64,000 bases of DNA from Alphaproteobacteria bacterium (GTDB lineage Bacteria > Pseudomonadota > Alphaproteobacteria > MPNO01 > UBA830). Both the position numbers and the translations under genes were made by a program. The notes under the pieces were generated by a model, which did no database searches, was not told the DNA's origin, and saw only the letters and a list, made by a program, of their open reading frames with translations. The stretch lies in contig OZ251539.1 of NCBI GenBank assembly GCA_965243135.1, positions 2,464,001 through 2,528,000 of the forward strand. The letters run 5' to 3'. Below, piece after piece: positions 43,704 to 48,479 of the stretch (position 1 is the first letter of the stretch; every line of letters begins with the position of its first letter).

Positions 43704-46105
43704 CTGCCCTGTCATCACAAATCCCCTTCTGGACTGAGCAGGGGATGCGATCGTCCCGATTTCTTGATTTCCGCCAGATCCTCGTATGCCTGACAATAGC
43801 CGGAGAGATAGGAATAACCCTGCCAGATTTTCTGATGGCCGGGCGGCGGGTCGTGCTTGCGGTTGCGGTAGCCGGCCATGATGGCGACGATCAGCACCGC
43901 TTCTTTGAGCGTCCTCGGCTTCGGCGTTCTCGGCAGTTTCGTCGCGTAGTCTTCGATGACGAGCAGTTCCATGTCCGAGAACATGAGCCCGGCGGGGACG
44001 TCCGGCGTCTCGCGCGCCAGCAGCGCCATCAGCATGACGCGCCATGCGATGACTGCGTTGATCGCAATCACGCGTTCGAGGCGCGCTGCGGTGCGGTGGC
44101 CCGTTTCTTCGACCTTGCACCCGGACTTCAGCGTGCGATGCCAGTCTTCGATGCGCCATCTCAGGGCGTACCAACCCACGACCCGCATGGCGTCTTCGAC
44201 GGACGAAACGGCGACCGTGGTAAGCAGGAACCATTCGACCGGTTTGGCCCCTTCCGGCGGCTTCGGCTCGCTGATGTGAACGACCTGAACGGGAAGCGGC
44301 GCGGTTCCGCCCGACGTCGGCGGCAGAGAGACGGTCCGAATCTCCATGTCGGCGACGCGTTCCTTGCGCCCGTTCGTCGCCTTGCGTTTGCTGACCTTGG
44401 GCCGTTGGCTCAGGCGCGAGACCGTAAGTTTCCGGTGCCCTTGAACCGGCGCGGCGCGGACGCTGTCGAACAGCTTCTCCGTTTTCGACAACTTCCGGCT
44501 GTGCTTGGCGCGCACCAGAATGTCGATATTGCCGAGACGCCGCTGCTCGGCGAACATTTCGAAGAAGTCCGCTTCCCGGTCCATCACGCTGACCAGTTGC
44601 GTACCTTCGAGCCGCCGGGCCGCCTCGGCGCATTCGCGCAGCCCTCGAAGCCACCGTGCCGACTTGCGTTCTTCCGGCAGCTTGTCCTTGCCCGGCCGAG
44701 GCGCGTCGAACTCGAGCTTCAGCAGACCCAGCGGCAAGCCGGCGTCATCCACCGCCATCGTCGTGTGCAGATGAAGTCCGGCGGTCTTGGCGCTGGTCTG
44801 GTTGTGCCCAATTACGCCCAGGTCGTCGCACTGCGCACGCGTGGCGAAGTTCAGGTCGGTGCCGTCCTGAAGGCACAGAACCGTATCCCGTGTCTGCATT
44901 CGCCCGAGCGTGCGCTCCTTGTGCGGCGTCAGGATGTTTTCCGGCGTGACCGCCCCCGGCTCGTCTCGCGGACGGCAGGCGGTAAAACCCCGTCACTGCC
45001 GCCATGTTTCCGCCCGCCGCTACCGAGAAGGGAGCGTGCGGTGCCTCCGCCTGGGCATGGGCACTGTCGACCAGGCGCTTCGCCAGACGCTTGTCTCCCA
45101 ACGGCGCACCTCCGAACTCGTTCTCGGCCCAGCACTCGCGCGACAGCCCTTCGCCGACCGGCACCGGGAGGGCCGGCCGGGCGCTCAGCGTTGCCCGGCA
45201 ACCCGGTTCGAGCTCGTACATGTATATCTCTTTCATGGACTCGGCCGCCAGTCCTTTCCGGTCCTGCCGGCCGCGTCCGCGAGTTGCGCCCACATGCGTC
45301 CAGTTCGCCGCGCGGAGCGAGATCCCTAGGTGATGCGCCGGGTCGACAAAGGTCTCCACCAACCAGGGGCGATGGCCGTAGCGTTCCTCGAAGTCCTGCG
45401 CCATCGTCGTCAGCGACATGCTCAACACCTGTGACGCGAGATTGCGGCACTCGACGCCGGGCCGGATCAGAAAGCGGTTCAGCCCGACGATGCGGTGAAG
45501 GCGCCGCTCCCGCGTCTTGTCGTCCCAGCCGATCCAGTTGTCGCGCGCCGCCAGGCGCCGCGCCGAGGCGGCAAAACCCACCGCGCCGAGCCAGCCATGG
45601 GACGAACCCACGAGATAACGGCACTGATAACCAACCAGCACCGCCTTGCCGAGGGGGTGTTCCGTGATCATCAATTCGTTCCAGATTGCGCTCTGTGCAG
45701 GGTTCTGCACCGGGACCAACTGTAGCTCCTCGATGAGATCCACCCGTTCGGGAACGTCTACCGCGGGCGGCACCGGTTCCGGGTTGCGGCGCACCCGGCG
45801 GCCTCCGCTTCCTCGCGGTGGCGGCAGAGCAATCCGTCCGTCCGTCGCGAGAACGCCAAGAGCCGCGTTGCAACTACTGATCTGCGGACGCCCGCGGGCA
45901 TCGAAAAAGCCGAACTCGTGACAAACCCTGCGGCTGAGTTCGGCTCGCGAAAGTTGCGGTTCGGCAGACAGTAATCCGCCGACCCGCTGCAATGCCTCAG
46001 GCGTGCTCAGGCGTTGCTTGACAAGATTCTGCGTATCCATGGCGTCTTGGTGAATACGCGAATCGATTGTCTCTGTCCAGAGCCTTGTTTGTGTTCACAG
46101 GGCAG
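43704..46105 (-). mobile_element. IS4-family insertion sequence (2402 bp) with terminal inverted repeats and 8-bp target duplication
   Basis: Left end CTGCCCTGTCATCACAAATCCCCTTCTGGACTGAG vs reverse-complemented right end CTGCCCTGTGAACACAAACAAGGCTCTGGACAGAG; direct repeat ACCTTGCT at 43696-43703 and 46106-46113. Confidence 0.92.
43715..46040 (-). pseudogene. DUF4338 (DruA-like)-IS4/Tn5-type DDE transposase fusion, frameshifted near 44975
   Basis: N part: HPLG..LVGYQCRYLV, RDNWIGWD, RFLIRP, NLAS, LVETFVD, SLRAANW, then WAENEFGGAPLGDKRL. C part: QDGTDLNF, VMDREADFF, YALRWRIEDWHRTLKSGCKVE, PPGHQKIWQG. Confidence 0.9.
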
Positions 46106-46395
46106 ACCTTGCTCGGGTGCAAAGACGGCAAGAAAGGCGGCCTTTTTCGCTTCGGCGACAAGGCGGCCACCTTGCGTATGCGTGGACCTTAACGCCCTGA
46201 TCGGCGCATCGTTACAATGGGCACGCTACCGCGCAGGTTCTATCGGGGATGACTGCGCGGCGAGTTCGTGACCATCACCGTGAAAATGGCCGCAATGGCC
46301 AAGGTCCTCGCCCGGCCGCTCCGGCAATGGCTGCTTGAGCCCGCTCAAGCAGCGGCTACCGTCGACAACATCGGTGCAAGGGCGGTGGAAGAGCG

Positions 46396-47201
46396 ATGAC
46401 CTTCGAGCGGCAGCCCACGGACAAGTGGCGCAAGGAGATCCCGGGTACGCGCTGGTTCAAGGCGGATCTGCACGTCCACACCATCGACGACCATCCGGGC
46501 GGTCGGGCAAAAATGCCTGCTGGCCTGTCCGGCGATCCAGCGGATCCGCAAACGCTATCGGGCTATGCACGACGCTTTCCGAAAGCCCTCGTCAAACGCG
46601 GCGTACAGGTCGTCGGCCTGACTCCGCATTCGCCGCGCGCGGGGATCGGCCTCCGGTATCCGGCCCGACGCGGCTGCGATATAGCCGCATTCGCCGCGCG
46701 CGGGGATCGGCCGTCGGCAGTTCAATCGCCGCGCCGACCGTTCAACCGCATTCGCCGCGCGCGGGGATCGGCCCCGAAACGAGCGCAGTCTGGCGCATCG
46801 TCGACGAATGGAACGGTGGAACCGACGACGACAGCGTTCCGTTCCGGGAAAAGATTTATGCCATATTCCCCGGATTCGAGCCGTCGCTTAAAGACGGTGA
46901 ATCAGGATTGCACCTTCTGTTCCTTTTCGATCCCGAGATCGGCCGCGATCATTACCTGAAAGCGTTCGACCTTGTCATGAGTGGCGTATCGCCTTGGCAC
47001 GCCGGAAAGTTGCAGATTGCTGGAAAGCGTGCCGAAAAGGCATTCGACGAGTTGGAGGAGTTTCGGGAACGGAAGTGCTCTGTTGCGGCCGGCGGAAATC
47101 GCGCGTGGAGTTCCATGGTTCTTGGCCCCTATATCGACGCAGAGAAGAGATTTTCCGGGGATCGAAAAGCTCAAGTGCTGCAATTCTTCGATCACGGGTA
47201 A
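46396..47201 (+). pseudogene. PHP-domain N-terminus of a TrlF/Ppl-like PHP-ATPase, interrupted by a CRISPR-like mini-array and truncated
   Basis: WFKADLHVHT, VQVVGLTPH, IYAIFPGFE, GLHLLFLFDP. The frame is broken by a 122-bp insertion (46652-46773 equivalent); no ATPase domain follows. Confidence 0.8.
46624..46773 (+). CRISPR. Orphan mini-array: 3 identical 28-bp repeats, 2 unique 33-bp spacers, type I-E geometry
   Basis: CCGCATTCGCCGCGCGCGGGGATCGGCC at 46624, 46685 and 46746; spacers TCCGGTATCCGGCCCGACGCGGCTGCGATATAG and GTCGGCAGTTCAATCGCCGCGCCGACCGTTCAA; the 3' half matches the GCGGGGATnnnCC end of I-E repeats. Confidence 0.8.
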
Positions 47202-47271
47202 GCGTTCGCTACCCGGGGGACGAAAAAAATTTGCCCCGGGGACTGGAAACGATTCGCTGATCCCTGCGCCT

Positions 47272-47565
47272 TCATGGAGTTGGCGACACGCAGCCCGTCG
47301 GCTACGCCAATGGCTCTGTCGCAAGCACAAGGTGCGTAAAGGAAAGCATGCGCACTTTCCAAGCGAATGGAACGAAATAGGTCTTACACGCCTACACCGC
47401 AACGAAGAGCTTTCCGTGGGCGAAGGCATGACGAAGCGCGGGAAATCCGCACGTCCGGTTTGACGAGCGGGGACTGGAAACGTGGCCAAGGGAGCCGGAC
47501 CGAGGCCCGGAGCGAAAGCGACGGAACCCGGACCCTAAAGCTAACGCGCCAGTCCTCGACTCTAC
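47272..47565 (+). mobile_element. 3' remnant of a group II intron (maturase tail, domain V, domain VI)
   Basis: RRLRQWLCRKHKV...GLTRL maturase tail; DV-like GCGGGAAATCCGCACGTCCGGTTTGACGAGCGGGG; terminus CCTCGACTCTAC at 47565. Confidence 0.8.
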
Positions 47566-47910
47566 CTCGACACGCTGGAGCGATTGCCGGCATACGTGGA
47601 CAGGCTTCACCGGCTCGCGGAGGACGCCGGGCGGGATCCCGCGTCGCTCCGGGTCATGTGGTTCACGTTGTGGTGGGGAACGGAACCGGGCGAGCCGCTT
47701 CGGCCGGCGGAGGCCAGTGCTCCGTTTCCCGGCGGCGACCGGCGCCTCCTGAGCGGCGGCACCCAGCGGATGAAGGACGACATGGCGGAGATGGAGGGGA
47801 TCGGCGTCGACTCCGTCATCGTCAACTTCGAGCGGGAAACCGTCGAGGACACGCTCGAAGGCATGGAGGTGTATGCGGCGGAGTTCATCGGGTCCGGAAC
47901 CGGCCTGTGA
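47566..47910 (+). pseudogene. C-terminal fragment of an LLM-class flavin/F420-dependent oxidoreductase
   Basis: LHRLAEDAGRDPASL, LLSGG..MKDDMAEMEGIGVDSVIVNF, MEVYAAE; begins right at the intron 3' end. Confidence 0.6.
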
Positions 47911-48479
47911 CCCGCAATCTCCGGCCGTGGAAGTTGCTGGGATCGAGAGAGATATTCGTCGTCCCCCGGCGGTTCTCGGTGTCCGCCCACGCGGTCGAGT
48001 TGCCCGGCGGCCGACGATACGAGCCCTACTACCGGGTCGATCTCGCCGATCAGGCCTGGGTGGCCGCGACGACGGAGGACGGCCGGTTCATCTGCCAGCG
48101 GCAGTACAAGCACGGGCCGGAGCGGGTCGCGCTCACCCTTCCCGGCGGGATCGTGGATCCGGGTGAGGAGCCCTTGGCTGCCGCCCGCCGGGAACTGCTC
48201 GAAGAGACGGGGTACGAATGTCGGGACTGGCGGCCTCTCGGCGCCTTCTGCCGCAACAACAACCAGCGCTGCGGCGAGGAGCATTTCTTCCTGGCGTCGA
48301 GCGGCGTCTGGAAGCAGGAGCCCGACCCGTCGACGAACCTGGAGGAGATCGAGACTGTGCTCATGACCCGCGACGAGCTGGCGCGGGCCGCGGCGAACGG
48401 CGAGGCGCCCGTGCTCGGCCATCTCGCCGGCATCCTGATGGCCCTTCGGCAACCGCCGCCGGAAGCCGGGAGATCGTGA
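47907..48479 (+). CDS. NUDIX hydrolase
   Basis: RQYKHG, Nudix box PGGIVDPGEEPLAAARRELLEETGY; GTG start overlapping the upstream stop. Confidence 0.9.
   Translation: MTRNLRPWKLLGSREIFVVPRRFSVSAHAVELPGGRRYEPYYRVDLADQAWVAATTEDGRFICQRQYKHGPERVALTLPGGIVDPGEEPLAAARRELLEETGYECRDWRPLGAFCRNNNQRCGEEHFFLASSGVWKQEPDPSTNLEEIETVLMTRDELARAAANGEAPVLGHLAGILMALRQPPPEAGRS

Follow-up and report, generated by a model that had tools for sequence, protein, structure and literature searches.

The stretch analyzed here (the window) comprises 64,000 nt of an alphaproteobacterial chromosome and corresponds to positions 2464001-2528000 of a single-contig genome of 6.10 Mb with 65% guanine plus cytosine (G+C). At window positions 46624-46773 (array start at genome 2510624), three identical 28-bp repeats and two 33-bp spacers form a miniature CRISPR array within the remnant of a gene for a TrlF-like PHP-domain AAA-ATPase. 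It is very probable that the bacterium's own type I-E integrase, Cas1e-Cas2e, twice integrated 33-bp prespacers from its own chromosome at the codons for TPHSPRAGIG in this gene. The initial annotation, made from the sequence alone, had proposed two successive ectopic acquisitions at codons mimicking a type I-E repeat, with the founding of an array. This proposal is supported by the geometry of the locus, the native origin of the target, the self-derived spacers and the cognate adaptation module.

Array structure and its native target

A search of the whole genome found the 28-mer CCGCATTCGCCGCGCGCGGGGATCGGCC exactly three times, with start-to-start distances of 61 and 61 nt; the next-best match has six mismatches, and no further copy exists at five mismatches or fewer. 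All parts of the array were read on the forward strand, with repeat 1 at 46624-46651, spacer 1 at 46652-46684, repeat 2 (a duplicated copy) at 46685-46712, spacer 2 at 46713-46745 and repeat 3 at 46746-46773. The two spacer sequences are unrelated to each other, so that the description of three identical 28-bp repeats with two unrelated 33-bp spacers proved correct. Because the bases bordering the three repeat copies differ, the repeat is exactly 28 nt long, and the unit therefore consists of exactly 28 nt of repeat and 33 nt of spacer. Three exact 28-mers at a fixed spacing of 61 nt cannot be the product of chance.

Repeat 1, with the native codons P-H-S-P-R-A-G-I-G, is in frame with an upstream open reading frame (ORF) that starts at 46396 (...VVGLTPHSPRAGIG). 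The N-terminal part of the pseudogene, at 46396-46623 on the forward strand (76 codons), was recognized from its translation and from positions 2-51 of the TrlF_fam_ATP profile NF045780. Repeat 3 is in frame with the downstream continuation of the gene (PHSPRAGIGPETSAVW...FFDHG), located at 46774-47201 on the same strand (ETSAVW...FFDHG plus stop), which ends prematurely at about residue 226 of about 920 with a stop codon at 47199-47201. The 122 nt from the start of repeat 1 to the start of repeat 3 shift the frame; removal of these 122 nt (2 x 61) from the 806 nt spanning 46396-47201 restores it and leaves 227 codons plus stop. The translations thus agree with what had been stated about the two halves of the gene and the restored frame.

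Comparison with homologous proteins provided information about the state of the gene before the array. A search with the downstream fragment (E <= 1e-5) returned 693 proteins, and the 120 listed are mostly about 920 aa long; the best match, the 922-aa homologue P0002, is 79% identical to this fragment and 86% identical to residues 1-85 of the window gene. Among the 120 matches listed (of 693), the pattern [VIL]x[GAS]xT[PD]H of the TPHSPRAG region occurs once in 115, and the top homologues read GLTPHSPRAG(T/D)GPETSAVWRIVEEWN without interruption. An alignment consensus of six homologues and a paralogue likewise contains a single, uninterrupted GLTPHSPRAG motif. At the DNA level, the codons occur once in all nine homologous loci from other genomes, these being metagenome-assembled genomes labelled Alpha- and Gammaproteobacteria, Spirochaetia, Rhodothermales, Arenicellales, Thermoanaerobaculia and Acidobacteria, and one of the corresponding 28-mers is 23/28 identical to the repeat. 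The bacterium's own genome also carries a full-length paralogue at 1098667-1101411 (54% identical to P0002), which has nine residues between GLTP and ET.AVW, equal to the window gene with one repeat copy, and which is 122 nt shorter across the array when the two genes are aligned as DNA. Judged by these alignments, the repeat is native coding sequence that would have stood in single copy before integration, in line with the expectation that intact homologues should carry one PHSPRAG-type motif.

Both spacers have perfect counterparts elsewhere in the chromosome. The 33/33-nt counterpart of spacer 1 is genome 4935965-4935997 (plus strand), just upstream of a sulfatase gene, and that of spacer 2, likewise 33/33 nt, is genome 362269-362301 (minus strand), with identity stopping exactly at the ends of both spacers. 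A foreign (phage or plasmid) origin was rejected, given these perfect self matches against only chance-level matches for the 150-nt array in a distant search of phage and plasmid collections (E <= 10, best E 0.1). Both spacers are derived from the bacterium's own chromosome. The suggested check of spacer origin and of the protospacer adjacent motif (PAM) was answered in part: two perfect chromosomal protospacers were found, and an AA (followed by T) stands immediately 5' of the 33-mer at the protospacer of spacer 1, with none at that of spacer 2.

The possibility of a mis-assembly, raised by the initial annotation, was addressed with public sequencing runs, 11 of the 13 listed containing the stretch or part of it, across four studies; none of the listed runs with the locus is recorded as RNA. 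Two of these contain 100% of the sampled 31-mers and are probably the assembly's own source, hence not independent. In run X4, from the same study and another sample, a 499-nt contig equals 46244-46742 with 0 differences and thus spans the first two repeats with spacer 1 between them, as well as 30 nt of spacer 2. Run X6, from another study and with another organism label, has a contig covering 46415-46667, that is, repeat 1 and 16 nt of spacer 1, also with 0 differences. Run X5, a sponge metagenome from a third study, has a 527-nt contig equal to 46694-47226 apart from four base differences and, further on, a 6-nt deletion; it begins within repeat 2, covers both spacer 2 and repeat 3 and extends into the downstream gene, and its junctions are free of differences. 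A second X5 contig, of 523 nt, matches only the 33 nt of spacer 1 and fits the protospacer locus. The array is real, inherited DNA common to strains that differ by less than 1% in this stretch, and the repeat-spacer junctions in contigs of other runs dispose of the suspected mis-assembly. The only joint, from 46493 to 46921 (side 28), was also considered as a shortened allele and rejected; its contigs match 46448-46499 only and were taken as paralogous or foreign.

The window mini-array is probably not a functional CRISPR array, to judge from its lack of both a leader and a canonical hairpin. The 150-nt array has a G+C content of 74.7%, and the G+C profile of the 230 nt upstream revealed no AT-rich leader of the kind looked for in a functional type I-E array because this region is coding sequence of 63-67% G+C. 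The only promoter-like site upstream (46189-46218, a consensus match only) lies about 400 nt from the array. The repeat RNA has a folding energy of -9.3 kcal/mol (z +0.68) and lacks the canonical hairpin of a 6-bp stem and 4-nt loop, and thus the Cas6e hairpin by which a functional type I-E array was judged; the cognate type I-E repeat RNA forms a 6-bp stem with a 4-nt loop at -13.1 kcal/mol (z -2.93). The initial annotation had noted the missing leader as well as a non-canonical 5' half and an imperfect hairpin in the repeat, and all of these hold: the 5' half is unlike the cognate repeat and there is no canonical fold.

Type I-E machinery and sister loci

Cas1 family matches occur in the genome only at 5.26, 5.28 and 5.31 Mb, so that the statement that the window contains no cas gene stands as far as cas1 is concerned. 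A complete type I-E operon (cas3-cse1-cse2-cas7-cas5e-cas6e-cas1e-cas2e, minus strand, all eight ORFs open) sits 2.8 Mb from the window array and adjoins a canonical array. Cas1e matches TIGR03638 at 5.6e-90 and Cas2e matches TIGR01873 at 2.1e-27. In an alignment with solved E. coli Cas1 structures (E 1.4e-44), Cas1e retains the segments GIEG, GF(I/V)H and DIAD, which we take to be those with the catalytic Glu, His and Asp. By these matches, the cognate adaptation module cas1e/cas2e is present in this genome and apparently intact.

The canonical type I-E array occupies genome 5302437-5307163 on the minus strand and consists of 78 repeats and 77 spacers, with a spacing of 61 nt in 75 cases and 62 nt in two. 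Its repeat, in the operon direction, is GCTTCCCCCGCACACGCGGGGATGTACC, ending in the GCGGGGATnnnCC pattern. The window repeat, compared in register, is identical to it at 15/28 positions, among them positions 15-23 (CGCGGGGAT) and the CC at the end; for random 28-mers from the genome, compared with the canonical repeat in the better of two orientations, the median is 9 identities and the 99th percentile 14. The host cas1/cas2 pair and the matching repeat end that the initial annotation had anticipated are accounted for by the complete operon, the 78-repeat array of period 61 and the GCGGGGATnnnCC pattern shared in register. With repeats of 36 and 37 nt and periods of about 66 and 75-81 nt, the other two arrays in the genome do not fit a unit of 28 + 33 nt, which leaves only the type I-E system. 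All three CRISPR-Cas loci lie within 55 kb (genome 5263941-5318800), each with its own Cas1 match; besides the type I-E locus, this region holds two more arrays, one with 115 repeats of 36 nt (period about 66) and one with at least 48 repeats of 37 nt (period 75-81).

Exact direct repeats of at least 20 nt were then sought across the whole genome at every offset from 35 to 99. Offset 61 gave 12 loci, namely the canonical array and 11 others. At offsets 55-59 there were 0 loci, at offset 62 the canonical array only and at offset 64 a single locus; offsets close to 61 that are not multiples of three had 0-2 loci and other such offsets 0-3 unless part of a CRISPR array, and multiples of three gave protein repeats. 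In addition to the window array with its three repeats (genome 2510624), the small offset-61 loci are found at genome 385672 (four repeats), 1912722 (two repeats, with a near-identical duplicate at 1922850), 2208565 (three), 2545732 (three; 17.7 kb past the end of the window), 2742314-2742951 (11 repeats and 10 spacers), 2992258 (two), 4477871 (two) and 5621020 (two). The repeat of the remaining one, at 4812991-4813200 (3-4 repeats), agrees with the canonical repeat at 25/28 positions, and this locus should rather be regarded as a small orphan type I-E array; it lies 0.49 Mb from the type I-E operon, and its first spacer matches the chromosome at 30/31 nt. Besides the window array, there are thus about eight further independent ectopic loci with 1-10 spacers each.

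All small loci have repeats of 28 or 28+1 nt. Leaving the orphan array aside, these repeats are unrelated in sequence; each matches the canonical repeat in register at 13-17 positions, and they have in common an alternating CG tract at positions 9-18. Such tracts are common in this genome (158 exact (CG)5 sites and 3373 with one mismatch), and therefore integration per site must be rare. Self-derived spacers make up 13 of the 25 unique spacers in the ten small loci, as compared to only 2 among the 77 of the canonical array (Fisher p = 4.5e-8), nine of the 13 matching at 32-33/33 nt and four over 28-31 nt. An AA directly 5' of the 33-mer was found at 7 of 15 self-protospacers, the AA frequency across the genome being 0.041 (p ~1e-6; 9e-5 when an AA at either end counts). 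This proportion fits naive E. coli type I-E adaptation, for which the available portions of a review give a share of at most ~50% AAG PAMs (PMC10011333). The canonical array as a whole gave no match to phages and plasmids by megablast, from which it follows that the native PAM can be read from self matches only.

Five of the 13 self-protospacers of the small loci lie within genome 4658567-4935997 (277 kb, 4.6% of the genome), 0.2-0.4 Mb from the GC-skew minimum. Summed along the genome, the GC skew is lowest near 5.1 Mb and highest near 1.6 Mb, with dnaA at 46 kb, and no tie of this cluster (4.66-4.94 Mb) to the origin, the terminus or a mobile element was found. The only self matches in the canonical array are those of spacers 35 and 37 (genome 5304541 and 5304663; 33/33 and 28/28), and in both the AA-G motif stands at the other end from where the normal type I-E orientation would place it. 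A motif reversed in this way would spare the cell from self-targeting and, with n = 2, gives only a hint of selection for survival under active interference.

Four of the small loci have empty, single-copy sites in paralogous copies (1912722, 2208565, 2742314 and 2992258, labelled B, C, F and G). The locus at 1912722 lies inside a dispersed element, at least nine other copies of which have flank alignments overlapping by 17-18 nt, and that at 2208565 has an empty-site copy at 3781203-3781663. For the 11-repeat locus, in a copy at 4504418-4505007 both flanks enter one 28-mer that is 24/28 identical. The locus at 2992258 is in a decayed DDE transposase gene, with flanks matching PF13701 at positions 300-331 and 325-351 (weak matches, E 1.3e-4 and 5e-4), and its sister copies carry the site once, with overlaps of 29, 29 and 23 nt. 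Open frames alone say little about coding status at 65% G+C; position-specific G+C made that status clear only for the window array and locus G. The window array is one of at least two integrations into recognizable genes. Within the 11-repeat locus, the largest of the ectopic arrays, an internal duplication of 122 nt is indicated by the identity of spacers 7 and 9 together with an alternating C/T variant of the repeat. A number of its spacers are AT-rich and without a match in the host genome, and its repeat is able to form a 5-bp stem with a 6-nt loop.

Probable integration route and rival explanations

The following route would produce the window array. Cas1e-Cas2e would bind a 33-bp prespacer cut from its own chromosome and take the 28-bp codon stretch, with its CG-rich center and its GCGGGGAT...CC half, for the cognate repeat. 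Two staggered strand attacks would then occur 28 bp apart, independently of a leader, and gap repair would duplicate the 28-mer as in normal adaptation, for which the available portions of the review mentioned above describe a protospacer of 33 bp, a first base taken from the PAM and the succession of both attacks in E. coli (PMC10011333). The 28-bp distance of the attacks would be explained by the mimicry itself, that is, by the central CG tract and the CGCGGGGAT...CC in register with the canonical repeat. A second event at one of the two copies would yield the repeat-spacer-repeat-spacer-repeat order, the 122-nt insert and the frameshift. If the usual polarity applies, spacer 1, which adjoins the upstream copy and whose protospacer has AA in the normal orientation, would be the younger of the two. 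Run X5, in which spacer 2 was found in array context and spacer 1 only at its source, is compatible with a younger spacer 1 and is no proof of it.

Several observations weigh against this route. The involvement of Cas1e-Cas2e is deduced from geometry and co-occurrence. The 5' half of the window repeat is unlike the cognate repeat and no leader-like sequence precedes it, so that integration must have been leader-independent, and leader-independent integration is inefficient in E. coli. The protospacer of spacer 2 has TT and then G as its 5' flank, with no AA at either end. Alleles with 0 or 1 spacer, or contigs skipping 61 or 122 nt, were absent from the contigs of four runs, in which the uncovered parts of X4-X6 are uninformative on alleles, and neither the left-junction 40-mer nor the 28-mer turned up in exact scans of metagenome contigs (0 matches each). 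Finally, none of the four same-genus genomes has a DNA match to the locus, which leaves paralogous and homologous empty sites but no orthologous one. Among 40 relatives searched for the locus, two matched, with 24-25-nt chance stretches only; the same-genus genomes are ~70-80% identical in the flanking genes of two other loci, and the array-bearing stretches cannot be aligned.

Other origins of the array were weighed against the same data. The 25/28 canonical repeat at genome ~4812991 demonstrates that small orphan arrays exist in this genome, and the window array might accordingly be the remnant of an older, genuine type I-E orphan array brought into the gene or beside it by recombination or horizontal transfer, its in-frame fit being coincidental. 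We regard this as highly improbable, given that the 28-mer encodes TPHSPRAG, a motif found once in 115/120 listed homologues and in 9/9 loci, that removal of exactly 122 nt restores both the frame and the paralogue spacing, and that the window repeat is only 15/28 identical to the canonical one. Even less credit can be given to a cause in which Cas proteins have no part, be it tandem duplication, slippage during replication or a small mobile element. Tandem repeats in protein-coding sequence are indeed common in this genome, but at offsets that are multiples of three, which 61 is not; each of the 33-nt inserts exactly copies a distant chromosomal locus of its own and bears no relation to the other, and the 28+33 unit recurs at 10 other loci with different repeats and only at offset 61. 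We know of no element other than Cas that combines a 28-bp target duplication with a 33-bp cargo. An assembly artefact, in the form of a chimeric or mis-joined contig, has a similarly negligible probability: only a single assembly is available and the best-matching runs are probably its source, but the junctions recur in Logan contigs of X4, X5 and X6, from other samples and two other studies.

A further alternative accepts the integrations as described and holds that the mini-array works, its transcripts from the gene promoter being processed into CRISPR RNAs (crRNAs) by which Cascade would be guided, either in self-regulation or in defence. In its favor, the repeat is identical to the cognate one over the 3' arm and where the 3' handle region starts (GCGGGGAT), and the promoter-like consensus match at 46189-46218 lies upstream. 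This alternative is nevertheless improbable, as the repeat lacks the canonical hairpin (z +0.68 vs -2.93) and as efficient loading should be autoimmune in a cell with perfect self matches and open cas3 and Cascade genes. A caveat to the autoimmunity argument comes from the flanks, protospacer 1 being preceded by an AAT-type and protospacer 2 by a non-AA flank. Ectopic integration by the cell's own Cas1e-Cas2e remains the preferred explanation, and the locus probably yields no working crRNA, judging from the missing hairpin and from perfect self matches that are tolerated despite open cas3 and Cascade.

Host gene, related systems and significance

Of the profile NF045780 (TrlF family AAA-like ATPase), the gene fragments in the window match no more than positions 2-51 and 71-100 and thus fall short of its full length. 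P0002 and the bacterium's own paralogue cover positions 2-944 of the profile with 328 and 290 bits against a cut-off of 350; the gene is therefore called TrlF-like. Both of these proteins also match the C-terminus of the anti-phage protein Ppl. The host gene is a truncated TrlF-like remnant and is possibly related to defence.

Of its roughly 920 residues the gene keeps only the first 226 or so. It breaks off at window ~47197, and the truncation is explained by a dispersed repeat element of ~93 nt that starts there (47197-47289, outside the array). Residues 227-922 occur nowhere else in the genome except in the paralogue, as revealed by a genome search. Elsewhere in the genome, the element is present in five near-full copies (91-98% identical) and four partial ones, and it contains an internal GC-rich hairpin around an A/T run. 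In the four runs examined, contig depth at the element is very high, and many differing loose ends lie just before 47197/47198. The truncation is an event separate from the array. The order of truncation and integration cannot be told, and inactivation of the gene by the spacers is not established: the claim that the array frameshifts the gene stands as regards the 122-nt insert, but with an independent truncation the frameshift cannot be named as what killed the gene. Near the array are a DruA-family (Druantia) ORF at 44745-46040 on the minus strand (PF14236, 1.5e-29), which also has a transposase DNA-binding domain (PF14706), and, downstream, a NUDIX-domain ORF at 47367-48479. The neighborhood looks like a decayed defence or mobile island.

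The window array is a natural and unusually well-documented case of ectopic type I-E integration, a kind of event known mainly from over-expression in E. coli. The E. coli neo-CRISPR arrays are reported to arise by off-target type I-E Cas1-Cas2 integration (Nivala, Shipman & Church 2018, Nat Microbiol 3:310), and they share with the window array a spacer of type I-E length at a non-CRISPR chromosomal site, the duplication of a target of repeat length and the possibility of adding further spacers. The window array differs in being natural and not over-expressed, in belonging to a sponge-associated bacterium of 65% G+C and in lying inside a conserved protein motif; additionally, both protospacers are still present in the cell's own chromosome, which carries about eight more independent loci, one of them with 10 spacers. 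The canonical type I-E array of this genome has the same 28-nt repeats, 33-nt spacers, period of 61 and 3' half (CGCGGGGAT..CC in the same register). It has, however, an AT-richer leader beside cas2, a hairpin repeat and 2/77 self spacers, whereas the window array has no leader, no hairpin and 2/2 self spacers.

Off-target plasmid sites of full-site integration by the Pyrococcus furiosus Cas1-Cas2, as given in the available portions of that study (PMC6698737), are likewise defined by repeat length and a few positionally conserved bases and are used independently of a leader; one of the sites there is 43% identical to the repeat, as compared to 46-61% for the sites found here. That system is archaeal, was studied in vitro and involves a 30-bp repeat, whereas here the products are fixed in a bacterial chromosome. 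Ectopic acquisition in Streptococcus thermophilus CRISPR3, according to the available portions of the report (PMC7999890), also takes place away from the leader-proximal repeat, but at genuine repeats in a genuine array and not at a protein-coding target. For natural genomes, the available portions of a preprint speak of 'circumstantial evidence' for off-target integration in two species (bioRxiv 10.1101/148544), and we found no natural genome with several ectopic-integration loci in the literature searched.

A broader interpretation, which we put forward tentatively and consider doubtful as yet, is that the type I-E integrase of this bacterium follows a relaxed, leader-independent rule requiring an alternating CG core of ~10 bp centrally in a 28-bp window, and that its use is a recurrent natural mutation and a source of new arrays. 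The window array would then be an early stage and the 11-repeat locus a later one that may already serve in immunity, and, if this were true, the de novo birth of CRISPR arrays would have been caught in nature.

Altogether, a single genome holds the whole chain of a native-codon target, both spacer donors, a cognate integrase and sister loci with 1-10 spacers. These observations touch on two open questions, namely the origin of new CRISPR arrays and how often the adaptation machinery damages its own host. They give a natural target-site data set for the type I-E integrase and a direct example of a gene frameshifted by CRISPR adaptation. The organism, which is apparently available as material sequenced at high depth, is suited to the study of array birth, the tolerance of Cas6e for novel repeats and the avoidance of autoimmunity.

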